Below are positions 32,342 to 61,674 of a DNA stretch of 63,254 nt, piece after piece; positions within the stretch are counted from its first letter, which is position 1, and each line of letters starts with the position of its first letter. The DNA is taken from assembly GCA_047638855.1 (NCBI GenBank), contig JBLIMP010000001.1, forward strand, positions 1 to 63,254, in the 5' to 3' direction. A program made the position numbers and the translations under genes. The notes under the pieces were generated by a model, which saw only the letters and a list, made by a program, of their open reading frames with translations, was not told the DNA's origin and made no database searches. Source of the stretch: Cellvibrionaceae bacterium (GTDB lineage Bacteria; Chloroflexota; Anaerolineae; Promineifilales; Promineifilaceae).

Positions 32342-32465
32342 AGGCTATTTCCGAGAATAAAACATGCAATTGCATCAACAAAATCGCCTCACCTCGTCAA
32401 CTTGATTGACACAGCCAATTCCCCTGAGCTAGTTTGCTAGATAATTATTTTTCGGGGTTGGCCTT
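32342..32465 (-). repeat. copy A of the same repeat, inverted relative to copy B
   Basis: The reverse complement of copy B matches in perfect 46-nt and 37-nt blocks. Copy A has about 20 extra nt between the two hairpin modules and small changes that weaken both stems. Confidence 0.85.
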
Positions 32466-32523
32466 AGACTCGATAAATCCTAATGCACTACCTGTTTTTC
32501 CCATCACAACCGTTCATTTACGA

Positions 32524-33483
32524 TCAACCCCAATTTCCTGGATTTAACAGCTTCGCATGGTCCCAGCGTAACCGGTCGAACTGCCGAATCAGTTCGGCCG
32601 GAAATGGCTCCTTCTCAGCAATCCCTAGCGAAGTTTCCAACTCATCTTCAGTGCGAACGCCCACTAGCGTTGTAGTCACAAGGGGATTTGATAAAACAAA
32701 ACGCAAGGCGGTTTCAATTTGATTCAGCGAAGGGGTTAAACTTTTTCCAAACTGTTTGACCGCATCTGCCTGCGCTTTAAGTTCCGCCAGATGAGGGGGT
32801 AAATCGGCTGATCGTGGCGTAAGTGCCCCTTTCAAAAAGACAGAACGAACAACAATCCCCACACCTTTTTCGGCCGCCAACGGAAAAACCACATCTGCCA
32901 AGCGTTGATCCAACACATTGTAGGCAATTTGCAAAGCATCAATGCCTGACTCAATCGCCCGCACCGGATCTTCAGTGCCATAAGTTGACGCCCCAATGGC
33001 TCGGATGTGGCCCTGCTGCCGGAACTCTTTGAGAATGCCTACCGCTTCGCTGTAATCATCAGGTGTGCTGTGCAACATCATCAGGTCGATGTGATCAGTG
33101 TGCAACAGGCGCAAACTCGCTTCAAGCGACGTTTGCATATGCTGACGCAAAACAGCCCCTTTTAACTCATTGCCATCCCCATCGTGAATCCCCATCTTGC
33201 TGGCTAACACCACCTTGTCCCGATAGCCTTGCAACGCGTGCCCCAGTACTTCTTCGCTCCGGCCGTACCCTCGAGCTGTATCGATAAACGTGATACCACC
33301 GTCAATCGCCTTGTGGATTAGCTGGGTCGCTTCACTTAACGTGGGTGGGTTCATCCCATCGCTTGAGTTTTGTGCCTGCCCAGCTTGAGGCGTGATGCCA
33401 TAGGCCATTCCCAAAGCAACTGTTCCCAAGCCCAGCACAGAAATTTTCAGATCGGTTTTACCAAGTTGATTCGTGCGGATCAT
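32524..33483 (-). CDS. aldo/keto reductase
   Basis: LGLGT...GITFIDTARGYG AKR N-terminal motifs; 319 aa. Confidence 0.85.
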   Translation of the reverse strand: MIRTNQLGKTDLKISVLGLGTVALGMAYGITPQAGQAQNSSDGMNPPTLSEATQLIHKAIDGGITFIDTARGYGRSEEVLGHALQGYRDKVVLASKMGIHDGDGNELKGAVLRQHMQTSLEASLRLLHTDHIDLMMLHSTPDDYSEAVGILKEFRQQGHIRAIGASTYGTEDPVRAIESGIDALQIAYNVLDQRLADVVFPLAAEKGVGIVVRSVFLKGALTPRSADLPPHLAELKAQADAVKQFGKSLTPSLNQIETALRFVLSNPLVTTTLVGVRTEDELETSLGIAEKEPFPAELIRQFDRLRWDHAKLLNPGNWG

Positions 33484-33497
33484 GATCGTCTCCTGAT

Positions 33498-34406
33498 CTA
33501 AAACGGAATGTCTATCAGTTTGCTAAATTCAGCCTCTTCAAGCTGTTGCCAAAGCTGATCCGTTTCGGCCGTGGTTAAGGGGCGCAACGGCCGCCGAGGC
33601 ACCCCGCAATCAAAGCCCAAGCGGCCTAAAATCGCTTTAACCGTTGATAGCGACGGGGCCGAAGTAAATGCTTTAATCACCCGGTTCGCCTGATACTGTT
33701 TGGTTTGAGCCGCCACTAAATCCCCTTCACGGTAACAGCGGTACAAGTCAGCAAATAAGCCTGGCAAAATGTTGTACGTCGTTCCAATCGCTCCGTCAGA
33801 CCCCATCACAAGCGCGGGCAAACACATCTCATCTGGACCCGAAAGCACCGTGACCGGCCGCCCCGCATCAATCTCGATCATTTTGCGCATTGTGAAAAAA
33901 TCATACGATGTGTATTTGATGCCTGTCACCTGTGGAATCTTCAGGAGTTCTGTAAACATGTCTGCGGTCACAGTCACCCCTGTTGCGCCTGGAATGTTGT
34001 ATAGCCACAGCGGCAGATCGGGTGCGGCGTCAGCGATCTGTTGATAATGGGCACGTAGCGCAGGTAGGTCTACCTTAAAGTAGATGGGGGGAATCGCAGA
34101 AATGGCCGTGGCTCCGGCCGCCTGCGCATGGGCCGCAAGATCAGCCGCCGTGTGCGTAGCAACCGCACCCACATGGGCGATCACATGCCCGGCATCGCCT
34201 GTTTCATCGATCACCGTCTCCAACGCCTGCTTGCGCTCATCCGAATCGAGCAACAGCCCTTCACCTGTGCCACCGTTGACAAAAAAGCCGGTTAAGCCTG
34301 CATCAAGCTGGTAGCGCACCAAGCGCCGGATCATCTCATGGTTAATGTTGCCTGCGGAATCAAACGGGGTAATCAGGGCAGATAATATGCCATTTATCGG
34401 TTTCAT
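33498..34406 (-). CDS. dihydrodipicolinate synthase/N-acetylneuraminate lyase family (class I aldolase) protein
   Basis: ITPF, GGTGEG and GIKYTS (Schiff-base Lys) motifs. I chose the start at MKPINGI (34406), which has AAGGAG 6 nt upstream; the tracked start at 34454 overlaps the upstream gene. Confidence 0.8.
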   Translation of the reverse strand: MKPINGILSALITPFDSAGNINHEMIRRLVRYQLDAGLTGFFVNGGTGEGLLLDSDERKQALETVIDETGDAGHVIAHVGAVATHTAADLAAHAQAAGATAISAIPPIYFKVDLPALRAHYQQIADAAPDLPLWLYNIPGATGVTVTADMFTELLKIPQVTGIKYTSYDFFTMRKMIEIDAGRPVTVLSGPDEMCLPALVMGSDGAIGTTYNILPGLFADLYRCYREGDLVAAQTKQYQANRVIKAFTSAPSLSTVKAILGRLGFDCGVPRRPLRPLTTAETDQLWQQLEEAEFSKLIDIPF

Positions 34407-34431
34407 CAGTTCTCCTTTATTTGTTGTCATT

Positions 34432-35640
34432 TTAATGTCGGCGTGACACACCATCTTTCTTTTTCGGGTGTGCTTGTTTCAAAAAATTTCTCGTACTATC
34501 TAGGCCAAACCGCTTCGGTGAAAAAGCACTAATATCGATTTGAGTCTCCCCATCAGCCGCTAGTTCGGCTAACAGCACACCGGCGGCTGGATTATAAGCA
34601 AAGCCCCCCGAGTGGAAAGCCCCACCGATAAACAGATTCTTGACGTGAGGTGCTTCACCCACAATCGGCTCTTCATCCATCGAAAAAGAAAGCAGGCCAA
34701 CCTGTTCGCTTGCCCACTTTGTCTCTTTCAAACGGGGTGTTAACTGACAGATGGCTTTGTAAAGCACCCGCTCTAACCCTTCAGGAGCCTTTAACCCATC
34801 CATCCGAAAGTTGAGAGATGGAACATTGAACGTAATCCGCTCCGGTGTTTCACCCCCAACCAATAATCGATTCCCATGTGCGGGGCGAATATACCCTTCG
34901 TATGGGTTGGCATTCACGGCCGGAATATTAACAGGGGCCGTCAGCGGGGCAGTAAGATAGCGTTGGTGAACCACCGCTTGCATCGGCAGTTCCCAATCAA
35001 GCGAAGCCAGCAGTTGTAACGCCCACGTATGCACCGTGCAAATCACAACATCCGCCTCAATTAACCCATTTTGGGTTTTCACTCCACGCACTTGCCCGCT
35101 TTCAGACACAATTTGTTCAACCATTTCCCCTTCTCGAATTTCCACACCCAAAGCTTGGCAACCTTGGGTTAAGGCGGGTAGATAATGTTCCGGTTCGCTG
35201 TACCCGCCCAATGGGTCATACAAACCGGTGATATCTTCAAGGGGTGTTAATTCAGGCCAGCGATAGTTGATTTCGGCCGCATCGAGCAGTTCATATGGAG
35301 CCTGAAACTCATCGTAGAGACCCAGTAAAGGTTGACGGTCAGCCCATGAAGCGGGGTCGAAAAGGTTGAGGCAGCCGACATTTTGGTAAGTGTAACCATA
35401 ATCATTCAGCTCTTCCGATAATTCGCTGTAGCGCGACAGGCTGATCTTCCGAGCCGCAACCCCCGTTTCCGTCCATAACAAACCGGTCACAATCCCTCCG
35501 GCTCGACTACTCGATCCATCACCAATTTTCTCTTTTTCGAGCAAGATAATTCGGCCGAACCCCTTTTGTGCCAAATGGTAAGCGGTACTTAAACCGATTA
35601 CCCCTCCACCGATAATAATCGCTGTACTAGCTGCTTTCAT
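34432..35640 (-). CDS. FAD-dependent oxidoreductase, DAO family (D-amino-acid/sarcosine oxidase-like)
   Basis: N-terminal IIIGGGVIGLSTAYHLA Rossmann motif; 402 aa. Confidence 0.85.
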   Translation of the reverse strand: MKAASTAIIIGGGVIGLSTAYHLAQKGFGRIILLEKEKIGDGSSSRAGGIVTGLLWTETGVAARKISLSRYSELSEELNDYGYTYQNVGCLNLFDPASWADRQPLLGLYDEFQAPYELLDAAEINYRWPELTPLEDITGLYDPLGGYSEPEHYLPALTQGCQALGVEIREGEMVEQIVSESGQVRGVKTQNGLIEADVVICTVHTWALQLLASLDWELPMQAVVHQRYLTAPLTAPVNIPAVNANPYEGYIRPAHGNRLLVGGETPERITFNVPSLNFRMDGLKAPEGLERVLYKAICQLTPRLKETKWASEQVGLLSFSMDEEPIVGEAPHVKNLFIGGAFHSGGFAYNPAAGVLLAELAADGETQIDISAFSPKRFGLDSTRNFLKQAHPKKKDGVSRRH

Positions 35641-36659
35641 TAGCTTTCCCCATTCAGCTCTTGCGGAGTGAGTTCATTGAGCAACGGCTTTTCACCTAAA
35701 AACCGTTCCACATTTTCGGTAAAGATCGACCATATCCGTGTGGTAAAACGGGCGTTGGCGGACGAGCCAGAAATATGCGGGGTCATAATCACGTTTGGGT
35801 AGCGCCACAACACATGATCGGCCGGCATCGGGTAATGGTAATGGGTGTCGAGAGCGGCTCCAGCAATTGTTTTATTATCGAGTGCTTCAAGTAGGGCCGT
35901 TTGCTCAATGATCGGTCCACGGGCCGGGTTTAGAATATAGGCATGGTCGGGCAGGGCTTGTAACTCTGCCCGGCCGATGATCCCCTCTGTCTTCGCTGTC
36001 AACGGCATCGCCACAATCAGGAAATCTAGCCCAGCCAAAAACTCACTTTTCTCGGCAGGTAAAAAGGCTTTATCCGGCAACTTGCCTTCAGGGTCACCCG
36101 TTCCAGCAACACAATAGATATTTTCTCGCGGGCCAACGCCGTGTCGGCTCAAAACATGGACCGTCATACCTAACGTTTTACACAAGCGGGCTGTCTCCCG
36201 GCCGATCCCCCCGTATCCCCAAATGCCCACAACTGATCCGTTGATCTCTTGCTGAAAGCGTGCCCCTCCGTCCCAAACGCCAGAATCTTGATTGCGAATC
36301 ATCTGGCGTAGATCACGCACCAAATTGATCATCATGGCGATGTTCCATTCCCCTATCGGCACATCAAAGACCCCGCGCGCGTTGCAGGCTCGAATCTCTT
36401 TCTGGGGCAGGTTTAATCCGACTAGTTGGGTGTACCCGGCAGAGCCGATTTGCCACAATTTGAGGGCTGTCATCTCAGCTAGGTTTTTAGGCGGATGGGT
36501 TGATAGCAGGATGTCAACATGCGGAGCGATGTCGGCCCCGATCGACCAATCTATCTCTTCAGCCTCCGCTTCCATTACAGTCACTCGGCCGGTTGTCAAC
36601 GACGACAAAACCGCTAATTGCTCTTGATCAATGGTGCCATGCACAAGAATGTTTTTCAT
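35640..36659 (-). CDS. D-isomer-specific 2-hydroxyacid dehydrogenase
   Basis: GIWGYGGIGRETA NAD motif, NPARG and TPHISG motifs. I chose the start at MKNILVHG (36659). Confidence 0.8.
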   Translation of the reverse strand: MKNILVHGTIDQEQLAVLSSLTTGRVTVMEAEAEEIDWSIGADIAPHVDILLSTHPPKNLAEMTALKLWQIGSAGYTQLVGLNLPQKEIRACNARGVFDVPIGEWNIAMMINLVRDLRQMIRNQDSGVWDGGARFQQEINGSVVGIWGYGGIGRETARLCKTLGMTVHVLSRHGVGPRENIYCVAGTGDPEGKLPDKAFLPAEKSEFLAGLDFLIVAMPLTAKTEGIIGRAELQALPDHAYILNPARGPIIEQTALLEALDNKTIAGAALDTHYHYPMPADHVLWRYPNVIMTPHISGSSANARFTTRIWSIFTENVERFLGEKPLLNELTPQELNGES

Positions 36660-36716
36660 ATCGTAAAACAGGTATCCTACCTGTTGCTTAGGAACGGAAA
36701 TTAAATAACTGCCCCA

Positions 36717-36785
36717 CCCCAGCATTCATGCTGGGGCTACAGACAACGGCCTCCGGCCTTTGAAGCCGAGGGATTTATCCCTCGG
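36717..36785 (-). terminator. two candidate terminator/stabiliser hairpins downstream of the enolase-family gene
   Basis: CCCCAGCAT-TC-ATGCTGGGG (36717-36736) and CCGAGGGA-TTTA-TCCCTCGG (36766-36785). A third small hairpin lies at 36668-36684. None has a clear U-tract. Confidence 0.3.
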
Positions 36786-36818
36786 TGCAAAGTGCGGCAG
36801 TTGTTTACTTCTCAACCT

Positions 36819-38027
36819 TTAATCTGTCAAAATTTTACCCGGCACACTATTATATTCACCGCTACCTGGTACAAATGGGAAGCGAGCTTTGGTTTCTTCG
36901 GTCAGACGAATCCCTAAGCCAGGAGCTTCAGGCGGCCGTGCTCGGCCGTTGATCATCACAAATGAATCGCCAATGATTTCACTATGCAACGGCCCATAAT
37001 CAGGGGCGATTTCCAAAATCGTTGTATTGGCCGCCGCGAATCCACAGTGCAGATTTTGCATAAAGCCGCCACCGGCCGCCCAAGAGTGGGTCGCTATTTT
37101 TCGGCCGCGACCTTCCAGCAGTGCCGCAACCCGCATAAATTCATGCATGCCACCCGTAAAGGCCGCATCAGGTTGCCCGATGTCGAAAGAATCCTGTTCA
37201 GCAAACACTCGCCATTCATACATCGTTGTCAAACATTCGCCACCTGCAATCGGCACAGTCGTCGAATTTCGCAACTCAGCATATCCCCACGGATCGGTAT
37301 AATGGAGCGGTTCTTCAAAGAAAAAGAGGTCATACGGCTCGACAGCCCGCATCACCGTGAGAGCTGTGTTCAAATCCCACGTGTTGTTTGGATTATTCCC
37401 CATATGCCCATCTAGGCAGATTTTGACATCTTTGCCCACATGCTGGCGGACCATGTCTACTTTTTGAGCTTCAAATTCGGCCGCCTGATGCGGGCTACTC
37501 ACGTCACAAAATTCGGCCGGATACGCACCCGAGGCGATTTTGAACCCGCTGAAACCCAATCCTAAATAGTAATCAACTTTTTCAAGCAATTTTTTGGCCG
37601 GATAATTGCTGGGGCCCCCCGTGGCATAGCAATCGAGTTCATCATGTTTCCGGCCGCCGAGCAGTTCATAAACCGGTACACCCAGCATTTTCCCTTTTAA
37701 GTCCCACAAAGCCGCCTCGATCCCGCTTAACACAATCGGGCCCAGACCAACCCGTCCCCAGAAGTTTCCGCAGTGATACATCTGCTCCCAAAGTTGAGCG
37801 ATGTTATCGACCGTTCGGCCGATCAAAATCGGTTTGTAAAAATCAACCACGCCGGGAACCAGCTCTGGGCAAAAATAACCCCCATACGTCTCCCCTAATC
37901 CGATCAATTCTGTATCGGTGTGGATTTCAATAAAGGCCGCGCTCCGCCGTGAACGGGCCTCGCTCAAATATCGATCATTTGTGCAAGGGCCAGTCAATAA
38001 TATCGTTCTGACATCTGTAATTTTCAT
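36819..38027 (-). CDS. enolase-superfamily enzyme (mandelate racemase/muconate lactonizing family)
   Basis: MKITDV N-terminus with capping domain, a metal-ligand pattern (LDGHM..., FFEEP, GEC) and a KxK-type barrel; 402 aa. Confidence 0.85.
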   Translation of the reverse strand: MKITDVRTILLTGPCTNDRYLSEARSRRSAAFIEIHTDTELIGLGETYGGYFCPELVPGVVDFYKPILIGRTVDNIAQLWEQMYHCGNFWGRVGLGPIVLSGIEAALWDLKGKMLGVPVYELLGGRKHDELDCYATGGPSNYPAKKLLEKVDYYLGLGFSGFKIASGAYPAEFCDVSSPHQAAEFEAQKVDMVRQHVGKDVKICLDGHMGNNPNNTWDLNTALTVMRAVEPYDLFFFEEPLHYTDPWGYAELRNSTTVPIAGGECLTTMYEWRVFAEQDSFDIGQPDAAFTGGMHEFMRVAALLEGRGRKIATHSWAAGGGFMQNLHCGFAAANTTILEIAPDYGPLHSEIIGDSFVMINGRARPPEAPGLGIRLTEETKARFPFVPGSGEYNSVPGKILTD

Positions 38028-38188
38028 TTAGTTAGCCGTCAACTACCAGCCAACAGCTTTTAGCTATTGGTTTTGCTGAGCCTACGTTTACTACCAGACC
38101 AGTTGTATTTTGAGGGTTTAGCCTGTGATTTTTTCAGAATGGGTCAATAAATGAGCAGCTGATAGCTGAAAGCTAACGGCTAACAGCT
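38028..38188. repeat. TAGC/AGCT-word spacer (GTTAGCCGTCAACT ... AGCTAACGGCTAAC at its two ends)
   Basis: 161-nt spacer between the ABC ATPase stop and the enolase-family gene start. It has terminal inverted words and repeated AACAGCTTT. Confidence 0.75.
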
Positions 38189-40213
38189 TTACAAGAACTG
38201 ATCTGCGTGATGGCATGCCACCATATGCGGCTCACTGTCTGAACCTAAATTACGAAATTCTGGATCAACCTTTTTGCAAATATCAGTGACAAAACTACAG
38301 CGTGTATGAAAACGACACGCCTGTGGTGGGTTGGCCGGATTCGGCACGTCGCCCTGCAAAATGAGGCGTTCTCGTTGAGCCTCTTTATCTGGGTCAGGCA
38401 CCGGAATAGCTGAAAGCAGTGCTTGGGTATACGGGTGCAGCGGCCGATCAAAAAGCTGTTCTCTGCCGCTTAACTCAACAATCCGGCCGAGATACATCAC
38501 CGCCACTCGGTCGCTGATATAGCGCACCATTGATAAATCATGCGCAATAAACAGATAGGTCAAGCCCAACTGACTTTTTAACTCCATCAGCAAATTGATC
38601 ACTTGAGCCTGAATCGAAACATCCAATGCGGAGATCGGTTCATCTGCCACAATAAAAGATGGGTTTGTCGCCAAAGCCCGGGCAATCCCGATCCTTTGCC
38701 GCTGACCACCCGAAAACTCATGAGGGTAGCGATTTACAAAATTTGGATTAAGACCCACAAGTTCTAAAAGCTCATGAACGCGTGCATCTTGACTGGCTTT
38801 GTCCCCAATCTCATGAATCTCAAGGGCTTCGCGAACAATGCTCCCCACCGTGATACGTGGATTCAACGAGGCGTAGGGGTCCTGGAAAATCATCTGCATA
38901 TTGCGCCGAGCTAGACGAAGATCTTCTTTGCCCAATTGGGTTAAATCTTGCCCATCAAGAATGACACGGCCGGCGGTGGGTTCCAAAAGTTGCAGAATAG
39001 TCTGCCCTGTTGTCGACTTGCCACAGCCACTTTCACCGACCAGTCCCAACGTCTCCCCACGCATAATTTCAAATGAAACCCCATCAACCGCTTGAACCGC
39101 CCCAGTTTGGCGTCGCAGAAATCCCTGTTGCACAGGAAAATGCTTTTTCAAGTTTTCGACCTTTAGCAAAACTTCATCAAAGTCTGACTCTCTGACTTCA
39201 GCTAGTTCAACAGTCTCTTTTGCAGGCAGATTAATCCCATCACGAATATCTTCCCAACGCCAACAGGCTGAAAAATGGTCATCACTCACCTGCTGTAACG
39301 GCGGGTTCTCTTCCCAACATCGGTCAACCGCAAACCGACAGCGAGGGGCAAATGGGCAATGGGTTGCTTCTTGCAAAAGATCAGGCGGTAGTCCAGGAAT
39401 CGGAATGAGCTTATCAGCACTTCCTTCTATTGTGGGGATCGATTCTAAAAGGCCAAGCGTGTATGGATGGCTTGTTAATTTATACAGGTCATGGACGGGT
39501 GCCATTTCGACGATGAAGCCCCCATACATGACGGCCACTTTTTCGACCAGCCTCGCCACAACCCCCAGATCATGGGTAATCCAAATGATCGCCATTCCTA
39601 ATTCTTTTTGCAGTTTGGCCACTAGCTCCATAATTTGAGCTTGGATCGTCACATCAAGAGCAGTAGTTGGCTCGTCGGCAATCAGCAAAGATGGGTCACA
39701 CAACAAGGCCATGGCGATCCCGATACGCTGACGTTGACCGCCGGAAAATTGATGCGGATAATCACTAATCCGGTCGGCCGCATTTGGGATGCCAACCAAT
39801 GACATCAAATCAACCGAACGTTTGTTGGCATCAGTCCGACTCATTCTGAGGTGGCGTTCGAGTGATTCGGTCAGTTGTCGGCCGATAGTCAGCACTGGAT
39901 TAAGCGAAGTCATCGGGTCTTGAAAGACCATCGCTATCTCTCGGCCGCGAATGTTCCGGACCTTGTTCGCTGGCAATTTGAGTAAATCTTGCCCGTTAAA
40001 AATCACTTCACCCGCTTCGATTTCACCAGGGGGGTTGGGGATCAACCCCATAATCGAAAGCACCCCAACAGATTTTCCGCTCCCACTCTCACCCACAATC
40101 GCCAACGACTCCCCTTTGTTCAGCTTATATGAGATTCCATTGACAGCATGAACCGTCCCTTCTTCGGTGTGGAACCGTGTTTTTAGATTTTTGACTTCAA
40201 GTAAATGTGTCAT
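38189..40213 (-). CDS. fused tandem ABC ATPase of a peptide/nickel (Dpp/Opp) type importer
   Basis: Two complete ATPase modules (GESGSGKS ... SGGQRQR ... and GESGCGKST ... SGGQRQR ...), each with an Opp-type C-terminal Cys-rich extension. Confidence 0.9.
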
Positions 40214-40275
40214 GTGTTCAGCTTCTAGCTTTTGGCCGTTAGCTATCAGTGTTTGGCTAATAGCTAATAGCTGTT
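40214..40275. repeat. TAGC/AGCT-word spacer
   Basis: CAGCTTCTAGCTTTTGGCCGTTAGCTATCAGTGTTTGGCTAATAGCTAATAGCTG. It shares GCCGTTAGCTATCAG and AGCTTTTGGC with the 38-kb, 59-kb and 10.8-kb spacers. Confidence 0.75.
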
Positions 40276-41184: not shown

Positions 41185-41229
41185 CAGATCTTATTTCCCG
41201 AATAGATTTTTATTTCAAACTCCACAAAT

Positions 41230-42192: not shown

Positions 42193-42211
42193 TAAAAACC
42201 TTTAGACTTTT

Positions 42212-42310
42212 AAAAAGTGACAAGTGACAAGTGCGCTAGTGACCAGCAACCAGTTTCGAGTAACCTTCGGCTACTTGTCACTGATCACTGATCACTTTTT
42301 ACTTGTCACT
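42212..42310. repeat. GTGAC-word spacer forming a long imperfect palindrome
   Basis: AAAAAGTGACAAGTGACAAGT ... ACTTGTCACTGATCACTGATCACTTTTT ACTTGTCACT, between the SBP stop and the DppB-like start. Confidence 0.8.
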
Positions 42311-42324
42311 TCTAACTATCGAAA

Positions 42325-49139: not shown

Positions 49140-49153
49140 AAATGTGATAGCCC

Positions 49154-51148: not shown

Positions 51149-51175
51149 TGGTTCACTTGAAGTACCAGTATACCA
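51149..51175 (+). promoter_or_regulatory. 27-nt conserved box, candidate GntR operator (site 1, upstream of the GntR gene)
   Basis: TGGTTCACTTGAAGTACCAGTATACCA lies 159-185 nt upstream of the GntR start. It is identical to site 2 at 26/27 positions and contains the palindrome ACTTGAAGT and a GTATAC core. Confidence 0.45.
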
Positions 51176-51369
51176 AAAAGTATTTCATTCGCAACGCTTA
51201 CATCAGCTAGATCAGGGTGATGGCTGAACAAGTTTAGATTCCGCCGATTGAACAGCTAAAGAGCTTTAACTCTGTTTCATCTGTGGAAGAGTTGCTGATT
51301 GCAGGAAATGTTCTAGCCCAAGGAAAAAGCCTATGATGGCTGATTAATTGCGTTGGATTTAACCCTGAA

Positions 51370-53511: not shown

Positions 53512-53525
53512 TTCAGAAACCCCAA

Positions 53526-54500
53526 TTATTTTGACTGCGCATGGACCACATTTTCAAGTGGCTCGCCGCGATAATAACGGCCGATATTGTCCGCAATAAA
53601 CTCAAAACGATAGTTCATCGTTCCGTTTGTTGTCCCGGCGTTATGGGGTGTCATGATGATGTTAGGCAATTCATGAAACGGATAAGTTGCAGGGATGCAG
53701 ACCTCATCTAACGCATTTGGATAAATGTACCAGACGTCGTTTGCAGCCCCAGCGATCACTTTGTCTCGCAACCCTTCATATAAACTCTGCTCATCAACAA
53801 CTGGGCCACGAGCCACATTGACTAAATAGGCCGAATCCTTCATCATCTTGAGCTCTGCCTGACCGACAAATCCGGCCGTTTCGGCCGTATTCGGAATCGC
53901 CACAACGACAAAATCAGCCTGTGGCAAATAGTCGTGCATTTTTGTTAGGCTGTCGATTTGGTTGAGACCTAAGTGCTGACCACGTTCGGCCGATGGCGAA
54001 CGTGTGAGTCCAGTCACCTGCATTCCATAGAATTCCCCCCAGCGAGCCACTTCCGCCCCGATATGACCCAGCCCCAAAACAAGCAGATTACATCCTCGCA
54101 ACTCATTGCGAAACACGCCACCACTCCAGTTACCGGCTCGTAGCGCCGCATCTTGCTTAATCACTTCTCGTTTGAGCATCGCCATCGTCATAAAGCTATA
54201 TTCTGCAACCGCCCATTCGTGCCCGTAAACGTTGCAAACAGCACAGCTTGATGGCAATCCAGCAAAATCAATCCCTTCTGTCCCTGCACCAACCCCTTGT
54301 ACAAGCTTTAAAGGGGCATCTTTTTGGAGCCACTCACCCTTGACAAAAGAGCTAATCATGACATCTACGTCTCGAAGCTTATTTGAATAAGATTCATCGG
54401 TTTCTTTATTGAAAGATGTCAGCTCATGTGGGACTTGAATCAGTTTTCTGAACGTCTCAACGTACTTTTCTAAGACCAAAATACGGATCGGTTTCGTCAT
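53526..54500 (-). CDS. D-isomer-specific 2-hydroxyacid dehydrogenase
   Basis: GLGHIGAEVA NAD motif, NVARG and TPHNAG motifs; 324 aa. Confidence 0.85.
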   Translation of the reverse strand: MTKPIRILVLEKYVETFRKLIQVPHELTSFNKETDESYSNKLRDVDVMISSFVKGEWLQKDAPLKLVQGVGAGTEGIDFAGLPSSCAVCNVYGHEWAVAEYSFMTMAMLKREVIKQDAALRAGNWSGGVFRNELRGCNLLVLGLGHIGAEVARWGEFYGMQVTGLTRSPSAERGQHLGLNQIDSLTKMHDYLPQADFVVVAIPNTAETAGFVGQAELKMMKDSAYLVNVARGPVVDEQSLYEGLRDKVIAGAANDVWYIYPNALDEVCIPATYPFHELPNIIMTPHNAGTTNGTMNYRFEFIADNIGRYYRGEPLENVVHAQSK

Positions 54501-54522
54501 TTCAAACTCCTTTGATCAGGTG

Positions 54523-55659
54523 CTATGACCTTGTTTTTAAGAGGGCGTATCGGATGTGGGTAATAGACATTTCGGTACACCAAAAACTAAAGAGAATATC
54601 TCCATTGTTCAGCAGATTGGCGGTTGGGGCACCGTAGGCGATTGTGTCGTGAGAGCGTGGATAAGATTCTGGCGCGTCGATGCCCAATCGCTCCCGGCCG
54701 GTTGCGTCCCAAACAACAATTTGGTTGGCGATGTCCCACGTTAAGCCCCAATCGTCAGAGACACAAGCGAAAAAACCAGGAGATGTTTGTTCTCTTGAGG
54801 TATAGATGGCCACAAATCGGCCGTCGCCCAAATCAACCACTGCGTTGGTCTGCCCCAGAATATTGGTGGCCTCTGGAGTACTCCATTCACGGCTGTCGGC
54901 TGTTCCAAAACAGCGGTGAAGCGGAAGGTCGCCCATCGGGTCGCTCATTTCTGCGCTCCAAAAAAGGGCAAAGAGACGTTGATCAGTCAACGGTGTGATT
55001 CGGCCGTGCCAAAAACCTTTGCCCTCTGCCGAACCATTGGCAAAAGAAACCGGTGCATTCCATGTTTTCCCTTTGTCATCAGAAAAGAATCCCACCGTTC
55101 GAGGCTTATAAGGGCCAGGATCGTCAAACGCGTGCCACTGGTCATGGGCTAAAAACCAACGGCCATCTGGCAATTCAACAATGGCCGAACTTGGTGTAAT
55201 GACCATATCAGCCGGTACACCGATTGTTTCAGGCGGTGACCAGGTTACCCCTTTATCGGCTGAGCGTTGCAAAATCAGCTCCAGCTCAGTTAGACCCCCC
55301 GTTTTCTCATTGAAAATCGGCCGATTTGGATCAGAACGATCAACCCGAAACGCTACAAAAACGAGCAACCCATCTCGCATATGAGATATGAACGGACTGT
55401 GATAAGAGTAGGGGCGGTCGTCCAAACTGCGATCAGTGATGAGGGTATGGTCACCCCAAGTTCGGCCGCCATCGTGCGAACGTGCCTGCCAAAAGCTGAG
55501 ATCGGTGGCATACATCCCTTGGCCTCGGTTATAGGTACACAGGAGTTCATCTCCGTCCAAAGGGACGATATGGCTAAAAAGGGCGGTTACATGGGTATAA
55601 CCTGGATCTGGGTTGAGATAAATCGGTCCGCTGCTTAGCAATTCAAGTTTACTCATCAT
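54523..55659 (-). CDS. BNR/Asp-box (sialidase-fold) propeller protein, no signal peptide
   Basis: Four Asp-boxes: SHDGGRTW, SADKGVTW, SDDKGKTW and SDDWGLTW; 378 aa. Confidence 0.75.
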   Translation of the reverse strand: MMSKLELLSSGPIYLNPDPGYTHVTALFSHIVPLDGDELLCTYNRGQGMYATDLSFWQARSHDGGRTWGDHTLITDRSLDDRPYSYHSPFISHMRDGLLVFVAFRVDRSDPNRPIFNEKTGGLTELELILQRSADKGVTWSPPETIGVPADMVITPSSAIVELPDGRWFLAHDQWHAFDDPGPYKPRTVGFFSDDKGKTWNAPVSFANGSAEGKGFWHGRITPLTDQRLFALFWSAEMSDPMGDLPLHRCFGTADSREWSTPEATNILGQTNAVVDLGDGRFVAIYTSREQTSPGFFACVSDDWGLTWDIANQIVVWDATGRERLGIDAPESYPRSHDTIAYGAPTANLLNNGDILFSFWCTEMSITHIRYALLKTRS

Positions 55660-55664
55660 TTCTC

Positions 55665-56879
55665 CTAAAAAAGTTGCTCCCCACTCTCTAAATATTTTTC
55701 ACAAACAGATTCGTTAAGCGTCAGTCCCAAACCGGGTTCATCGTTCAAAACGATATGCCCATCTTCAAATAGAGGTAATCCACCTCGATCAGCAATCTGT
55801 CCGATCCATGGGGCATTGTGCCAATGGTATTCGAGCCCGATAAAGTTGGGGCTGGCGGCCGCCACATGGGCACAAGCGATGACGCCCAACGCACAGCTAT
55901 TGTTGTGCAGCGCCATCGGCAAATAGTTAAGATCAGCGTAATCAGCGATTTTGCGCGTCTCAAACAATCCACCTGAAAAAAGAATGTCGGGATGGATCAT
56001 GTCGCAAGCACCACGATCGATAAAAAGGCGAAATTGTTCGGCCACAAAGGTTTCGCCAAGGCAAATCGGGATCGGGCTTTTTTCTCGAATGGCCACGCAG
56101 GCATCAGGGTTGGTGACAGGCGTTGGGTCTTCAAACCATTTTAGATTTAGGTGAGCCAACGCTCGGGCCAAACGAATCGATGACGGGACATCATATTGCA
56201 TGTGCCCATCAATGGAGATTTCCATATCTGGGCCAACGGCATTGCGCACGGCCGTCAAGCGTTCAACGATTTTGTTGATTTGGGGCAACGTTAAACTTTT
56301 GTTCCAAGGATCGTTGGGATAGTCAGTTGCGGCATAATCGATGTCAAACTTGATGTCGGTAAAACCTTGTTCCTGCGCATCGAGAGCAAGCTTGCGCCAC
56401 GCCTCTAAATCATTGAGGTCGGCCGGACTGCTACGATCAAGATAAACGAGCAAACGATCTCGATACTTTCCGCCAAGCAGGTTGTAAACGGGGGTGTTGA
56501 GCGCCTTGCCGACCAGATCGCACAGAGCCATCTCAACCCCACTTACCGCCCAGACGACCGGTCCAAACGGAGTGGCACTGGCTGATTGACTCGGTTCATG
56601 CGGCGGAAGGCCTCCGTAAAGCATGGCTGTAACAAACGGCCGGATGGTAAAAGGATCTTTACCGATTAAATATTCCTTCATTTTGCCCATAATCAATTGG
56701 CGAACGCCTAAGGTTTGATTTTGGAAATGGGCCGCTTCACCCAAGCCGTACAGCCCTGAGTCGGTGTCGATCCGCACCAGTAAAATATGCCAATCCCGTC
56801 CTTGCCCGCCGATGCCATGTGCATCTGGGCCAACCATCGCCATGGTGCGTACATTAGTTATTTTCATCAGCTTGTCCAT
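55665..56879 (-). CDS. enolase-superfamily enzyme (mandelate racemase/muconate lactonizing family)
   Basis: MKITNV... capping domain and barrel ligand pattern (IDGHM, WFEDP, GET); 404 aa. An alternative start is at 56867. Confidence 0.85.
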   Translation of the reverse strand: MDKLMKITNVRTMAMVGPDAHGIGGQGRDWHILLVRIDTDSGLYGLGEAAHFQNQTLGVRQLIMGKMKEYLIGKDPFTIRPFVTAMLYGGLPPHEPSQSASATPFGPVVWAVSGVEMALCDLVGKALNTPVYNLLGGKYRDRLLVYLDRSSPADLNDLEAWRKLALDAQEQGFTDIKFDIDYAATDYPNDPWNKSLTLPQINKIVERLTAVRNAVGPDMEISIDGHMQYDVPSSIRLARALAHLNLKWFEDPTPVTNPDACVAIREKSPIPICLGETFVAEQFRLFIDRGACDMIHPDILFSGGLFETRKIADYADLNYLPMALHNNSCALGVIACAHVAAASPNFIGLEYHWHNAPWIGQIADRGGLPLFEDGHIVLNDEPGLGLTLNESVCEKYLESGEQLF

Positions 56880-57201
56880 TTATATTTGCCGGTTCGATGC
56901 GTTCGAGCAAGAAGAAGACCGGCCGGAACCCGTCCGTACAATTGGTTACAAAAACCCCTGGTTTAACCCCCAACATATTGCCACCACGGGCTAGCACCAT
57001 CACATATTTCTGAATGTCGGTCCAAGCCCAATCACTAAACCCTTCAGGCATATGGCCGTCTGAAATAAAGCTGTGCCCCACAGGGAAACTGTGACAACAT
57101 CCCTCCGGTTTCCATGCAACCCCTTCAGTGTAGGCGTCAGCAAAATCTTGATTAAACGTTTTCTTTAACACGGTAATGCGCACTTGATAAGGGGTTAACA
57201 T
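56854..57201 (-). CDS. TIGR04076-like small Cys-containing protein
   Basis: The pattern VRITVLKKTFNQDFADAY...MPEGFSDWAWTDI...TNCTDGFRPVFFLLERIE matches my memory of TIGR04076 family proteins. Its 3' end overlaps the downstream enolase gene start by 14-26 nt. Confidence 0.55.
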   Translation of the reverse strand: MLTPYQVRITVLKKTFNQDFADAYTEGVAWKPEGCCHSFPVGHSFISDGHMPEGFSDWAWTDIQKYVMVLARGGNMLGVKPGVFVTNCTDGFRPVFFLLERIEPANINGQADENN

Positions 57202-57245
57202 TTTGCTCTTCTCCTTTTCCTTTCCTTTCTTTTCAGCCTGCTCAG

Positions 57246-58133
57246 TTATCCGTAATCGATTTTCAAGGTGTAGCGTGGGTCTTCATGTAAGGCCCAATAG
57301 CCATCTTGAAATTTCTGCGTCATTGGCCCTATCATGCCCGAACCGATCAATTGATCATCGATTTTTGTGATCGGCATAATGCCTCCGGCCGTGCTTGTGA
57401 TAAATACCTCGTCAGCATTGCGAATCTCATCAGCCGACAAGTCACCTTCTACAATTTTGGTACCAAAATCGGCCGCCAAACCGATTGTCGTTTGTCTTGT
57501 AATTCCTTGTAGAATGCCTGTAGCTGGGGTTGTGATTATTTCCCCTTTGACCGAGAAGATATTAAAGCCTGGCCCCTCTTTCAAATACCCGTATTGGTCA
57601 ACAAGTGCGGCCGTTTCACCCCCTCGATCATATGCTTCAAACTGCCCCATCACCAAGTCGAGCCAATGATAGTTTTTTACGGTAGGATCAATTGACTCGG
57701 GAGCGATACGTTGCTGTTTACTGATGATCATGTGCAGCCCAGTTTCCGGTTTAGTCACCCAAATAAACGGAACCGCAAAAGCATAAAATCGATTGGCGCA
57801 TGTTCTGGGATCTCGTGATCCGGGTGCTGGTAGCCCTCGGGTCACAATCATTTCGACGTAGGCATCACGCAGGCCGGTTTTCTTCACACAATCGGTCAAA
57901 ATCGCAGATAATTCTTGGCGGTTGTAGGGAATTGACATCCGTAATACTTCCATCCCAGCAAAGAAACGATCAAAATGATCGTCAAGCCGAAAAAAGCGTC
58001 CCTTCCAAACATGCGAAACATCATAAGTCGCATCTGAATGGAGAAAGCCCCAATCAAGGAGCGAGATTTTCGCCTCTGTAATTGGAACGAATTTTTCGTC
58101 AATAAAGGCTGTTCCCCTGGAATAATCAGGCAT
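57246..58133 (-). CDS. class IV aminotransferase (branched-chain/D-amino-acid type)
   Basis: The N-terminal FIDEKFVPITEAKISLLDWGFLHSDATYDV pattern and a length of 295 aa are typical of fold-type IV PLP enzymes. Confidence 0.8.
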   Translation of the reverse strand: MPDYSRGTAFIDEKFVPITEAKISLLDWGFLHSDATYDVSHVWKGRFFRLDDHFDRFFAGMEVLRMSIPYNRQELSAILTDCVKKTGLRDAYVEMIVTRGLPAPGSRDPRTCANRFYAFAVPFIWVTKPETGLHMIISKQQRIAPESIDPTVKNYHWLDLVMGQFEAYDRGGETAALVDQYGYLKEGPGFNIFSVKGEIITTPATGILQGITRQTTIGLAADFGTKIVEGDLSADEIRNADEVFITSTAGGIMPITKIDDQLIGSGMIGPMTQKFQDGYWALHEDPRYTLKIDYG

Positions 58134-58209
58134 GTTTTCTTTTCCTTAAAGAGTGCTTGATAAATAGCATTAGTATAGATTTTTCCCAGACGGACATATT
58201 GTCGTAAGG

Positions 58210-58270
58210 GCGGAAGGGGTCGGGAAATACCCTCTCTCTTCGGAGCCAAGATGGTTCCGACCCCTTCCGC
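58210..58270. other. GC-rich long hairpin (14-bp perfect stem, 33-nt loop)
   Basis: GCGGAAGGGGTCGG ... CCGACCCCTTCCGC. It shares the GGGGTCGG core and the loop length with the 60253 hairpin. Confidence 0.8.
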
Positions 58271-58287
58271 ACCTACTAAATTTCAGG

Positions 58288-59124
58288 TCAACCCCAACGA
58301 GATGGGCTTAAACCGGCCGCACCATCTGCCATCACGGCCGGTTTATTGGCGACATTAAAATCAGCTTTGCGAATGTTTCGGTCGATAAAGTACGGCCGGA
58401 TGTTATCTGGTAAGGTGGCGATTTTAGCCTCGTCCCACTGAGCCACTTTTGGCAAGATGGGCCCCCCCCAAGCTGGTCGGTAAGCGATGGCCAGCATGCG
58501 CCGATCATAACCGCCTACATTTGGGAAATTTCCGTGGAAGACTTTGTGATTGAGCAAAAGGGCTGATCCGGCCGAAGCGGTCACCATCACCTCTTCAGGG
58601 TGGCTGGCATAGCGTTTATATGGATTCGCATCAGCGTTTAGCGAAAGATGAGAGCGGGGAACCACTTTGAATGGAGAGACTTCAGGGGTTAGGTCATCTA
58701 AATAGTAGAGGACTCGAATGATGATTGGGCAACTGCCTTCATAGCCAAATATCTCTGAACCATACGGCTGGCCGTCGGTGTGTAAACTTATCCCAGGATG
58801 GCCAGGTTCTGAGACCGCATAGGCATAGGTCATGAAGACAAGTTCATCGTTCAAAAGCTCTTTAACAAAATTTATTACGGGTGGATGATCGATTAATTGA
58901 GTAGCGGCACCCCCGCTAAACTGCATATTGCCACGGGTGCGCTGATGCACGCTGTAATCCATTGGGGTCGTTTCTAAATCGGCCGTTTCAGCCCTTAGCT
59001 GTGTCAGCAGTTCGGCCGGTAGAACATCTGGCAAAACCAGATACCCATCCACTTCTAAACTGCGGATCTGCTCCCCACGTGTCAATTTTGACCAATCTTG
59101 ATTGTCAATTTGTTTGTTATCCAT
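58288..59124 (-). CDS. PhyH-family Fe(II)/2-oxoglutarate dioxygenase
   Basis: HTDG (HxD) plus a later VFHGNF His; LVLPDVL N-terminal pattern; 278 aa. Confidence 0.7.
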   Translation of the reverse strand: MDNKQIDNQDWSKLTRGEQIRSLEVDGYLVLPDVLPAELLTQLRAETADLETTPMDYSVHQRTRGNMQFSGGAATQLIDHPPVINFVKELLNDELVFMTYAYAVSEPGHPGISLHTDGQPYGSEIFGYEGSCPIIIRVLYYLDDLTPEVSPFKVVPRSHLSLNADANPYKRYASHPEEVMVTASAGSALLLNHKVFHGNFPNVGGYDRRMLAIAYRPAWGGPILPKVAQWDEAKIATLPDNIRPYFIDRNIRKADFNVANKPAVMADGAAGLSPSRWG

Positions 59125-59198
59125 TTGTTGAAACCTTCGGTTTTTTAGCCGTCAGCTATCAGCTATTAGCCAAAAGCTGGGAACTGACGGCTGTTAGC
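59125..59198. repeat. TAGC/AGCT-word spacer with a 9-bp hairpin AGCCGTCAG/CTGACGGCT
   Basis: TTAGCCGTCAGCTATCAGCTATTAGCCAAAAGCTGGGAACTGACGGCTGTTAGC. The stem is 59147-59155 paired with 59184-59192. Confidence 0.8.
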
Positions 59199-60200
59199 TT
59201 AAGTAAGGGGGAACAGTTGCTTGGCGTTGTTGTAAAAGATGTCTTCAATTTGACTGTCTTTTAATTTGAGCCGTTGACACGCTAGACGAATGCTCCGAAT
59301 CGACTCTAAGCCAACCAAGACCGGTTTCAGGGTCGTATGTTTTTCGCCTAAATCCATATCGTTCGCATAAAACCAGTGGAACGAGTCGCCAATAGCGATA
59401 CACCGGCCGCGAATGTGGCTGACATGAAAATCGGTTCCATACATCAATTTGTGATGCCCCATCGTTTCAATAATCGCTTCAAATGCTCCTGCTTCGGTCA
59501 CGGCAGAACTATCAAACCAGACGTTTTCTAACCCTTTTAGGCTGTGAATCCCTTCGATCGTATGCCACGGGTTAAAGCCACGGGCGGCATGGGCCAAAAT
59601 CAACTGCATCTTGGGATAGGTTTCGCAGTAGCGTCGGATCGTCGCTTGATTAATCGGGTCAGCCAATGCCCGATCTCGCACCATGTGGAGCGTAATCGTT
59701 AAACCTAGCTCATGGGCTACCTGAATGTGCTTCTCTGGCAAGTAGGCTTCGATGGGTGCATCCCATGTGGGGCCATCCATGACCGCCATCGTGTGATAGC
59801 ACTTTAAGCCGACCATGCCTAAGCGTTTGACTTCACTTGCCACATATTCAGCCGTCATATCGGGTGAGATCAGCATTTGGCCAAAACAATTTTCGCCGAG
59901 GGGCCCGCTGACTTCGGCCGCAATATATTCGTTATTGCCAACGCGATCTCCGTTCATAGCCAGGCCAAAAAACAGCCCCCCTTTGGTACGCCCTTTTGGA
60001 TGAATCCATTCGCTGTAATCATAAAATTCTGCCAACCCTTGCGGATTGGGGGTGTCGGCAAAGCCAGCCAAGTCTCCTTTCGGAAAATGGCTGTGCAAAA
60101 ACAAGTGGGCGTGTGAATCAAAAATTTTGTCAGGTAAAAACGGCTCCACCTCACGCTCCACCATCAGTCGATCTTCGTCTGTAAATTTCCAGCTAACCAT
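59199..60200 (-). CDS. Amidohydro_2 family protein
   Basis: IFDSHAHLF N-terminal metal motif, ILAHA and a late GTDFH motif; 333 aa. Confidence 0.7.
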   Translation of the reverse strand: MVSWKFTDEDRLMVEREVEPFLPDKIFDSHAHLFLHSHFPKGDLAGFADTPNPQGLAEFYDYSEWIHPKGRTKGGLFFGLAMNGDRVGNNEYIAAEVSGPLGENCFGQMLISPDMTAEYVASEVKRLGMVGLKCYHTMAVMDGPTWDAPIEAYLPEKHIQVAHELGLTITLHMVRDRALADPINQATIRRYCETYPKMQLILAHAARGFNPWHTIEGIHSLKGLENVWFDSSAVTEAGAFEAIIETMGHHKLMYGTDFHVSHIRGRCIAIGDSFHWFYANDMDLGEKHTTLKPVLVGLESIRSIRLACQRLKLKDSQIEDIFYNNAKQLFPLT

Positions 60201-60252
60201 TGTTTTTCCTTTTATCCTTTTTTAAATTATTCAACAGGTACTAAAAATTCGC

Positions 60253-60327
60253 CGTAGGGGTCGGCGCCGCCGGAGCGGATGTTTGATCGTAGAACGACAC
60301 TCTAGACCGGCGGCGTCGGCCCCTACG
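60253..60327. other. GC-rich long hairpin (21-bp stem, 33-nt loop) in an AT-rich spacer
   Basis: CGTAGGGGTCGGCGCCGCCGG ... CCGGCGGCGTCGGCCCCTACG. There are 19 Watson-Crick pairs plus 2 positions that are G-T on the plus strand and A-C on the minus strand. Confidence 0.8.
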
Positions 60328-60355
60328 CAAGGTGCTGAACAATTACCTTTTTTTA

Positions 60356-61387
60356 TTAATCCCGCCAATCAAAAATGACACCCAACATCGATTTTTCTCG
60401 ATGATAGGCCATCTCATACGCTTTCACGATCTCAGAATAATGGAAGCGATGTGTAACCAATCGTTTGGGTTCAAGTTTGCCGTCAGCCATCAGCGACAAC
60501 ACGTGAGCGGCCGCACGGTCGGCCGTAAATCGATTTTGCATATCGTGCGGTGTGCTGCCTGCATCAGGGAATAGATATCCGGCTGGTCCTGAAACGGCAT
60601 GTAGTGAAATCCCTTTGATATAAAAAGCGTCCATCGCCAACGGATTAAAGTCGAGCGGTGCTTCGCCCCGGCCGGTTAGGGCCACGATAGACACCCGGCC
60701 GTGCGGCCGGACAATATCAAGGGCTGTGCGAAAAGCGGGCCATGGATTGGCGGTTAAAATCACTAAATCGATGCCGTGTCCATCGGTAAACTCATCAAGC
60801 TTCGCTTTTAAATCGGGATCACCCGAAAGCATCCCCGCGTGAGCACCCATCTTTTCAGCCATTTCGAGCCGAACAGGGCTGTTGGCTATAGCAACGACCC
60901 GGCCGCCAAATAGCGGACCCAATGCAATTGCTCCTAGCCCCAAAACACCAACTCCCACTACTGCAACATTTTCACCTGGCTGAAAAAAAGCTTTGCGATA
61001 ACAGTGGGAGCTTAAGGCGTACAAATGGGCGTAGACTGCGTCTTCGTAATCAACCCCTTTTGGCACTTTGACCAGGCTGGCCGATTCTTTGGTGATGTAT
61101 TCTGACTGATGGGGCTGACGGGTGACAACTACGTCTCCGACTTTGACACGGCTCACTCCACTGCCAATCCCTCGCACAATACCTAGATTGCTATCACCAA
61201 CCCAGCGGGGATAACCAGGCGCACCAGGAACATCTTCCGCCCCTTCATAGTTGCCACGGTCAGTCCCGATTTTAAAGGCGCTAATTTGGGTTTCAATCCA
61301 AATGTCATCGGCCGCCAGCGAGCCAGTATCCAGCTCTTGATCTTCGATACGCAGGTCACGTGGCCCATAAAGGATGGGAATTTTCAT
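60356..61387 (-). CDS. medium-chain dehydrogenase/reductase (zinc-ADH-like) oxidoreductase
   Basis: GroES-like N-terminal domain and a VAVVGVGVLG Rossmann motif. The classical Zn ligands are not obvious. Confidence 0.7.
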   Translation of the reverse strand: MKIPILYGPRDLRIEDQELDTGSLAADDIWIETQISAFKIGTDRGNYEGAEDVPGAPGYPRWVGDSNLGIVRGIGSGVSRVKVGDVVVTRQPHQSEYITKESASLVKVPKGVDYEDAVYAHLYALSSHCYRKAFFQPGENVAVVGVGVLGLGAIALGPLFGGRVVAIANSPVRLEMAEKMGAHAGMLSGDPDLKAKLDEFTDGHGIDLVILTANPWPAFRTALDIVRPHGRVSIVALTGRGEAPLDFNPLAMDAFYIKGISLHAVSGPAGYLFPDAGSTPHDMQNRFTADRAAAHVLSLMADGKLEPKRLVTHRFHYSEIVKAYEMAYHREKSMLGVIFDWRD

Positions 61388-61468
61388 GGCTACTCCTATT
61401 TTTAATGGTCAACTTCAAAGAATTAAGTGATCAGTTAGAGCGTGCCTAAGTTGAGGAATTAACCCAAC

Positions 61469-61495
61469 TGGTTCACTTGAAGTACCAGTATGCCA
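61469..61495 (+). promoter_or_regulatory. 27-nt conserved box, candidate GntR operator (site 2, upstream of the first gene of the cluster)
   Basis: TGGTTCACTTGAAGTACCAGTATGCCA lies 82-108 nt upstream of the MDR oxidoreductase start at 61387. Confidence 0.45.
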
Positions 61496-61508
61496 CCCAG
61501 TATGCCAC
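61485..61508 (+). repeat. 12-nt tandem duplication CCAGTATGCCAC x2, overlapping box site 2
   Basis: Read directly: CCAGTATGCCAC at 61485-61496 and again at 61497-61508. Confidence 0.9.
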
Positions 61509-61569
61509 ACTGAAGGGAAGCCGTCAAAATAGGGTTACTTGAGAGATTCATGCAGACGTTAAGATAGAT

Positions 61570-61674
61570 AAGGCCAACCCCGAAAAATAATTATCTAGCA
61601 AACTAGGTCAGGGGTTGGCTGTGAGGCGATTTTGTTGATGCAATTGCATGTTTTATTCTCGGAAATCGCCTCAC
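61570..61674 (+). repeat. copy B of a two-hairpin intergenic repeat (most intact copy)
   Basis: Hairpin 1 is GCCAACCCC/GGGGTTGGC (9 bp, 29-nt loop). Hairpin 2 is GTGAGGCGATTT/AAATCGCCTCAC (12 bp), with a loop containing the perfect palindrome ATGCAATTGCAT. Confidence 0.85.

Follow-up and report, generated by a model that had tools for sequence, protein, structure and literature searches.

Small bacterial repeats and the inverted repeats around mobile or switchable DNA fall into several well-described groups. Miniature inverted-repeat transposable elements (MITEs) and MITE-like intergenic repeats include the Correia elements of Neisseria, the ERIC/IRU sequences of enterobacteria and the RUP and BOX elements of pneumococci. 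REP units, with which RAYT transposases are associated, are 20 to 40 nt long and carry a conserved GTAG-type tetranucleotide, while the ends of IS200/IS605 elements leave 10 to 20 nt between hairpin and cleavage site. The inverted repeats of known invertible segments are far shorter than the ~105- to 125-nt repeats considered here. The latter lie in a 63,254-nt stretch of DNA (the window; the whole of contig JBLIMP010000001.1, positions 1 to 63,254, assembly GCA_047638855.1) from an uncultured member of the Anaerolineae (Chloroflexota), in which two inverted copies, L on the left and R on the right, stand on either side of a 29-kb block of catabolic genes running from an alcohol dehydrogenase (ADH) gene to an aldo-keto reductase (AKR) gene. 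A third copy, T, is found elsewhere in the window.

We favor, with a probability of roughly 0.58, the reading that R, L and T belong to a small (~85 to 130 nt), lineage-restricted, dispersed repeat family of the MITE or REP kind in one uncultured Anaerolineae lineage, and that the bracketing of the catabolic block is largely incidental. Such a family would be a non-autonomous mobile or recombination-spread element; we infer that its spread proceeded by transposition or by recombination. The intact unit would consist of two different hairpins, and copies would lodge in spacers just past the 3' end of a transcription unit, which tolerate insertions, and would afterwards undergo neutral decay, R being the most intact, L a slightly altered young copy and T an old relic. 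R and L would be either two young copies or copies recently homogenized against each other. Their inverted placement in the two operon-boundary gaps flanking the ADH-to-AKR block would follow from where insertions survive, and the bracket would have seemed meaningful because, in a region this tightly packed, no sites other than inter-operon spacers tolerate insertions. Any two copies bracket what lies between them, and there is no sign of the 29 kb as a mobile or invertible unit.

Three copies and their hairpins

A repeat search of the window recovered R and L as two inverted arm pairs, 32342-32392/61621-61671 (51 nt) and 32421-32466/61569-61614 (46 nt), each 98% complementary. The first-pass annotation had described the pair as perfect blocks of 46 and 37 nt with about 20 extra nt in the left copy, and this description was accurate: each block occurs once per strand (at 32347/61621 and 32429/61570), and the extra sequence is a 20-nt insertion, CTCGTCAACTTGATTGACAC, at 32393-32412, plus TT. 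Its distances were also right, with 58 nt to the stop codon at 32524 on the left and 182 nt to the start codon at 61387 on the right. Apart from the two insertions, L differs from R by one C/G change and at its 5' edge. Repeat cores of 26 and 29 nt, searched with up to 3 mismatches, matched at the R and L sites only, and 100 shuffles gave 0 matches. R, the most intact member, lies on the minus strand at 61566..61677 and scores 140 bits over that interval with a covariance model; L lies inverted to it on the plus strand at 32336..32469 and scores 121.8 bits. R is placed 126 nt past the stop codon of an amidase gene (61798) and ahead of the ADH start, L just past the AKR stop and 408 nt upstream of the start of a BRO/DinD-like gene (31934). 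Single-base variants at the element edges were seen in two of the five contigs that span a junction. The L-specific insertion, on the plus strand between the two hairpins described below, is unique in the window and occurs in neither R nor T. It is itself a small hairpin (GTCAA-CTTGA-TTGAC) with CAC repeats at its borders.

R and L are not the sole copies. A search of ~450 kb with an nhmmer profile based solely on these two identified T on the minus strand at 2615..2703 (E = 1.4e-5), an old, partial copy, ~70% identical, that lies ~30 kb away and is unconnected to the catabolic cluster. T occupies the entire 67-nt gap between the convergent genes 1511-2632 (plus strand, sialidase-like) and 2700-3611 (minus strand, Abhydrolase_3), and each of these genes draws its final codons and its stop codon from it. 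It retains the collinear runs CAAAATCGCC, CACAGCCA, CCCCT, TTTTTC and GTTGGC. All three copies are found in spacers between transcription units, 0 to 126 nt downstream of a stop codon. The outcome that the first-pass annotation had named as refuting its own explanations, a dispersed family with coincidental bracketing, is in part what we see.

On the minus strand, R is predicted to fold into two adjacent hairpins, H1 and H2. H1 (61621..61674, minus strand) has a 12-bp stem, GTGAGGCGATTT/AAATCGCCTCAC, and a 30-nt loop holding the perfect palindrome ATGCAATTGCAT, which occurs in the window in R and L only. H2 (61571..61619, minus strand) has a 9-bp G+C-rich stem, GCCAACCCC/GGGGTTGGC, and a 29-nt loop with the mini-palindrome CTAGTTTGCTAG; the sequence 3' of its stem, CCUUAUCUAUCUU, has no U-tract. 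The predicted fold energy of R is -38.9 kcal/mol (z = -5.3; z = -4.9 for the other strand), while L folds barely better than shuffled sequence (z = -1.9 and -0.8 for the two strands). L has lost the outer pairs of H1, a G-to-T change breaks one further pair and the TT insertion forms a bulge in H2. T keeps 8 of the 12 H1 pairs and 6 of the 9 H2 pairs in alignments read by eye; it is without ~14 to 23 nt of the H1 loop, the palindrome ATGCAATTGCAT included, and its second palindrome is mutated. The stem changes in L and T are one-sided or disruptive and none is compensatory, three distinct copies being too few for an analysis of covariation. L and T have not conserved the hairpin structure, both hairpins being kept by R alone, and uncompensated decay of this kind is the pattern expected of decaying selfish copies.

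These structures bear on the possibility that the hairpin pair serves the host at transcription-unit boundaries, working in either orientation as a terminator, an insulator or an RNA-stabilizing 3' structure. We consider this unlikely. The position of the copies just past stop codons does fit the terminator or insulator modules put forward by the first-pass annotation. In MAG-171 (Chloroflexota; contig L019), moreover, a canonical terminator follows the amidase operon at the place that R takes here, where R stands ahead of a separately regulated ADH promoter and operator. R is strongly structured on both strands, and scans of the two spacers that hold R and L gave no other terminator-like site on the transcribed strand. 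However, neither R nor L combines a G+C-rich stem, a short loop and an adjoining U-tract as an intrinsic terminator does; no U-tract follows either stem and the loops measure 29 to 30 nt. The same scans detected neither promoter-like nor terminator-like sites within R or L on either strand. In two of the three copies the hairpins have decayed with no compensating changes, and relatives carrying these operons do not have the element. Since terminator-like sites across the window are no more frequent than in shuffled sequence, a terminator scan has little power in this organism. We further observed that the MAG-171 terminator, the bidirectional hairpin AAAAACGGGGTGTTGGAAAATAATTTCCAACACCCCGTTTAAAA at 11395-11480 of L019, has a stem, CGGGGTGTTGG, that loosely resembles the H2 stem of the repeat, CGGGGTTGG.

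A duplicated small RNA gene, or a protein-binding module in which ATGCAATTGCAT and CTAGTTTGCTAG are operator palindromes, appears improbable. It would account for the strong predicted structure of R and for the fact that the loops, both palindromes included, fall into the perfectly conserved R-L blocks. Yet the spacer scans placed no promoter-like site in or beside the copies, and the first palindrome is confined to R and L within the window and lacking in T, where the second one is mutated; the element is also missing from relatives. Rfam gave 0 matches for the entire window at gathering thresholds, and permissive scans of both spacers returned only a 24-bit chance match to a microRNA model with a cut-off of 71 bits. 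No tRNA gene was found in the window. A small peptide was considered and rejected: the 13-codon open reading frame (ORF) that starts at the palindrome ATG in R and L has no ribosome-binding site, differs in its 3' part and does not occur in T.

The catabolic block, its neighbors and its relatives

The 26 ORFs between the copies are, as the first-pass annotation stated, all on the minus strand, and they carry catabolic or transport Pfam domains. The block encodes the zinc-dependent ADH, five Amidohydro_2 proteins, a PhyH dioxygenase, a class IV aminotransferase, two enolase-superfamily enzymes, two D-2-hydroxyacid dehydrogenases, a Rieske protein and two DHDPS-family proteins, together with a BNR protein, an NHL propeller protein, a GntR/FCD regulator, a PIG-L protein, a peptide-type ABC importer, two AKRs and a DAO flavoenzyme. 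Judged by domain families, and with the amidase, deacetylase and MTTB genes upstream, this gene content suggests that peptides with modified or D-amino acids, or compounds resembling hydroxyproline, may be broken down.

The claim that the repeats exactly bracket this run does not hold, as the next gene on either side is also on the minus strand. The left neighbor (31059-31934) has a coding score of 0.22, compared to a training mean of 0.25, and encodes a weak BRO-N/DinD-like protein; the right neighbor is the amidase gene (61798-63219), with its true start at 63219. Contig L017, from another run of the same population and 100% identical to the window over the overlap, adds four same-strand genes upstream of the amidase gene, encoding a cytidine-deaminase-like protein, MTTB, a DAO protein and a polysaccharide deacetylase. 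With same-strand neighbors on both sides, the repeats therefore sit in inter-operon spacers (31935-32523 and 61388-61797) inside a longer same-strand stretch. At 589 and 410 nt, they are longer than all others among the window's 57 spacers, also after subtraction of the element. A plus-strand gene at 31651-32109 with L as its 3' untranslated region was rejected, its codon score (-0.22) being that of non-coding sequence.

The ADH promoter and operator lie between R and the ADH start, so that R is upstream of both. They comprise a TTGACG-17-CATACT promoter-like site and a ~32-nt box, TGGCATACTGGTACTTCAAGTGAACCAGTTG, with a TGGT...ACCA dyad, which overlaps promoter-like hexamers. The box is found upstream of the ADH and GntR/FCD genes (61469-61503 and 51149-51183 of the window) and is kept in relatives, as is the synteny of the cluster: at 9772-9803, 13409-13437 and 920-949 of L007, where it also precedes an aminotransferase gene, at 9847-9876 and 19613-19650 of L010, at 9090-9123 of L009 and at ~265-296 of L018. 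The box is probably the operator of the cluster's GntR-family regulator.

By ADH identity, the nearest available relatives are L018 (94%) and GCA_030425205.1 (contigs L007 and L038; 89%), with others at 83 to 84%; MAG-171 has an MTTB 88% identical and GCA_045105475.1 (L040) a sialidase-like protein 81% identical. The cluster is syntenic in related metagenome-assembled genomes (MAGs) of Anaerolineales/Chloroflexota, with local gene gain and loss, and is vertically inherited. In ~360 kb of the relatives' loci, orthologous positions included, blastn, nhmmer and the covariance model found no trace of the repeat. The copies are consequently recent, lineage-specific additions; they are neither conserved control parts nor sequences that the cluster brought with it.

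This comparison bears on the proposal that the repeats are terminal inverted repeats of a 29-kb non-autonomous transposon or island mobilized in trans. The inverted orientation and the placement of R and L at both ends of a functionally coherent block would suit such an element. Against it stand the presence and synteny of the cluster in relatives without the repeats, the solitary third copy some 30 kb away, a 22-nt internal indel in L versus R, and homology that ends cleanly with no direct repeat flanking the 29-kb unit. No transposase or integrase is encoded among the 58 ORFs of the window scanned for domains, as had been noted before, nor did that scan find a recombinase, invertase or Y1/HUH transposase domain, and the window's lack of tRNA genes points the same way. 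The density of CGGCCG is alike inside (3.61/kb) and outside (3.51/kb) the block, in agreement with the first-pass annotation, whose conclusion that the cluster is not a recent import is borne out by synteny in related Anaerolineales MAGs and by the same genome-wide CGGCCG signature. A 29-kb mobile unit is accordingly the rival most clearly contradicted by the data, and we regard it as very improbable.

The CGGCCG signature is a feature of its own. The window has 225 sites in 63 kb, compared to ~13 expected from base composition, of which 223 are coding (3.9/kb) and 2 non-coding (0.35/kb); all three frames are used (121/67/38). The word is also enriched in related Chloroflexota MAG loci (L007-L019; 1.2 to 3.5/kb), and several other 6-bp palindromes (TCCGGA, CTGCAG, CTCGAG and GGATCC) are strongly avoided. 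The iteration is like that of cyanobacterial HIP1 but involves a different word, and our search found no publication that connects CGGCCG with Chloroflexi. Degenerate 7-nt tandem repeats (AGCTATT/AGCTAAC type, AAGTGAC and ACTTATC), reminiscent of cyanobacterial STRR sequences, make up many of the short intergenic spacers; they are found at 38156-38188, 40235-40273, 42209-42324, 59152-59191, 15796-15825, 26565-26588 and 6537-6552. Within the cluster, two of these (40235-40273 and 59153-59191) are inverted relative to each other and match at 82%.

Breakpoints, orientation and the search for further copies

Several observations weigh against a dispersed family with incidental bracketing. R and L, the nearest neighbors among the copies, are 98% identical in their blocks and far more like each other than either is to T, a near-identity that may stem from a local event linked to the cluster instead of independent insertions. 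Three copies in 63 kb are documented, exact 19- to 23-mers of the repeat, terminal and internal, had no real match in genome, metagenome and viral collections, and exact-match scans of these collections found no parent insertion sequence that shares its ends with the repeat. The terminal inverted repeats are poor, with 6 of 9 positions agreeing between the 5' end TTAGGCGAT and the reverse-complemented 3' end TAAGGCCAA, both very short, and no precise empty site was recovered, so that a target-site duplication and transposition itself are tentative. Finally, all three copies coincide with synteny breakpoints relative to the nearest relatives, which is suggestive but, with relatives this distant, not decisive.

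At R, homology with the 94% relative ends 15 to 20 nt from the edge of the element, and a divergent amidohydrolase-like gene lies beyond. Upstream of the ADH gene, the 94%, 89% and 83% relatives have a divergently oriented neighbor and no amidase, and in MAG-171 the amidase operon ends in its hairpin terminator, followed by a convergent gene and not by the ADH cluster. On the left, the last AKR gene of GCA_030425205.1 (L038) is followed by a co-directional Mo-hydroxylase gene. The 81% relative lacks T; from the start of T onward, the tail of its sialidase-like gene departs from that in the window, and a different gene follows. The sialidase-like protein encoded in the window is 2 amino acids longer than that of this relative. 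The 94% (L018), 89% (L007 and L038), 88% (L019) and 81% (L040) relatives have different neighbors at the three sites, and none offers a clean pre-insertion sequence. The triplets flanking the copies are TGA...TTA for R (TTA...TTA in the strain variant L005), TTA...TTA for L and TGA...TTA for T. At every copy, the 5' flank thus reads T(T/G)A and the 3' flank TTA. This is compatible with a 3-bp TTA target duplication or with element sequence, which are indistinguishable because the flanking triplet is identical in all copies.

Breakpoints at R, L and T, and an R and an L that are inverted, near-identical and adjacent within the family, would also be explained if these two were partners in an inversion or relocation that set the orientation of the ADH-to-AKR block, in which case RecA-dependent exchange between their 46- to 51-nt identical arms could still flip it. 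Reversal of an R/L inversion would, furthermore, bring back the junction types seen in the relatives, divergent at ADH and convergent between AKR and amidase. We nevertheless consider both the scar and the persisting substrate doubtful. The actual flanking genes are common to none of the relatives, and the ancestral arrangement therefore cannot be reconstructed; at 70 to 94% protein identity, breakpoints at operon ends are common anyway. The source population (uncultured Anaerolineae/Chloroflexota) is present in several JGI and SRA metagenomes, and all five junction-spanning contigs, from four JGI samples and at 99.9 to 100% identity, have the parental orientation (amidase-R-ADH in L004, L005 and L006; AKR-L-BRO/DinD in L013 and L015), although a minority orientation would stay hidden in such consensus assemblies. 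Third-codon-position (GC3) skew gave no strand signal that was usable as a test for a recent inversion. As promoter and operator are inside the segment, its inversion would be without obvious regulatory effect.

In a broader version, the repeat family would be an engine of operon shuffling, wherein recombination between dispersed copies, and not transposition of genes, moved or inverted the 29-kb block and made the other junctions, with R and L as surviving partners still able to flip it. The copies at breakpoints, the near-identical neighbors R and L, and the fact that T supplies both stop codons, as a recombinant joint might, would fit this scenario, which we consider unlikely. On present evidence, none of the three mechanisms proposed by the first-pass annotation (a substrate for inversion or excision, a relic of a large element, or boundary modules) gains positive support, and we retain the dispersed repeat family as our preferred explanation.

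No copies beyond R, L and T were detected in the window, in sister contigs of the same population or in the extra 7 kb of L017. Logan contigs (k = 31) end inside the copies, at 32440 (L001 and L003), 32371 (L014) and 61645 (L017). A de Bruijn graph of the window with two copies predicts ends at 32437, 32376 and 61637; the observed stops come 3 to 8 nt earlier, which hints at extra copies or edge variants in those metagenomes. The independent assemblies L036 and L037 break at 1244 and 1339, in the 302-nt spacer 1209-1510, where no repeat was detected.

An exact 21-mer of block 1 gave 0 matches in the genome collection, from which the source species is absent, and an exact 3'-end 23-mer gave 0 matches in a metagenome collection that does not include the JGI samples with this contig; a gapped pattern of the two palindromes likewise gave 0 matches in the metagenome collection. 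A control search with the neighboring MTTB protein found a best match of 88% identity in the genome collection. Because the source species is not represented there, the empty exact-match scans say little. blastn against plasmids gave no match to the repeat. Of four patterns searched in viral contigs, the sole match, 21 nt in L041, falls in a G+C-rich, protein-coding-looking region without a covariance-model score and was dismissed as chance. Our literature searches yielded no repeat family described for this group.

If our reading is correct, uncultured marine-type Anaerolineae have a small repeat family not described before, which is mostly housekeeping knowledge. Such repeats break short-read assemblies, as the Logan contigs that stop inside each copy illustrate; they can also mislead island or transposon calls and can seed rearrangements. 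The family would carry greater weight if its copies were systematically located at rearrangement joints or if the 29-kb block occurred in both orientations.

Comparison with known repeat systems

Like invertons and shufflons, the locus has inverted repeats flanking a DNA segment. In contrast to those systems, the repeats are ~105 to 125 nt long, the segment spans 29 kb with its own promoter and is observed in a single orientation, and the 63 kb encode no invertase or tyrosine recombinase. A composite transposon or genomic island is no better match, given that mobility and tRNA genes are absent, the CGGCCG density is native and the cluster is syntenic in repeat-free relatives.

The palindrome-associated elements (PATEs) derived from IS200/IS605 elements are likewise small and non-coding, with two different hairpins, one near each end, and no convincing terminal inverted repeat. 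The hairpin feet of our element, however, lie 0 to 3 nt from the ends of homology, the copies have no common tetra- or pentanucleotide target on their 5' side and no TnpA or TnpB gene is nearby. With REP units and BIMEs, the element shares a palindromic makeup and a location in intergenic spacers, after stop codons or between convergent genes and in either orientation, where such units can affect mRNA ends. It differs from them in its 29- to 30-nt loops, in that no tetranucleotide is common to the boundaries of the three copies, and in that the window contains no RAYT gene.

In comparison with MITEs, the terminal inverted repeats are weak (~6/9), and two different hairpins stand side by side instead of one stem driven by terminal repeats. 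The target duplication (TTA) is only suggested, no parent insertion sequence is known and three copies are documented. In other respects, the element resembles MITEs: both are ~100 to 150 nt long, non-coding, strongly folding and dispersed in spacers, often at the 3' ends of genes, and both are lineage specific, with copies of differing age that have internal indels and can mark points of rearrangement. The repeat is real but the finding modest, a new addition to a well-known type of small intergenic repeat in bacteria, from a phylum that has been little studied.

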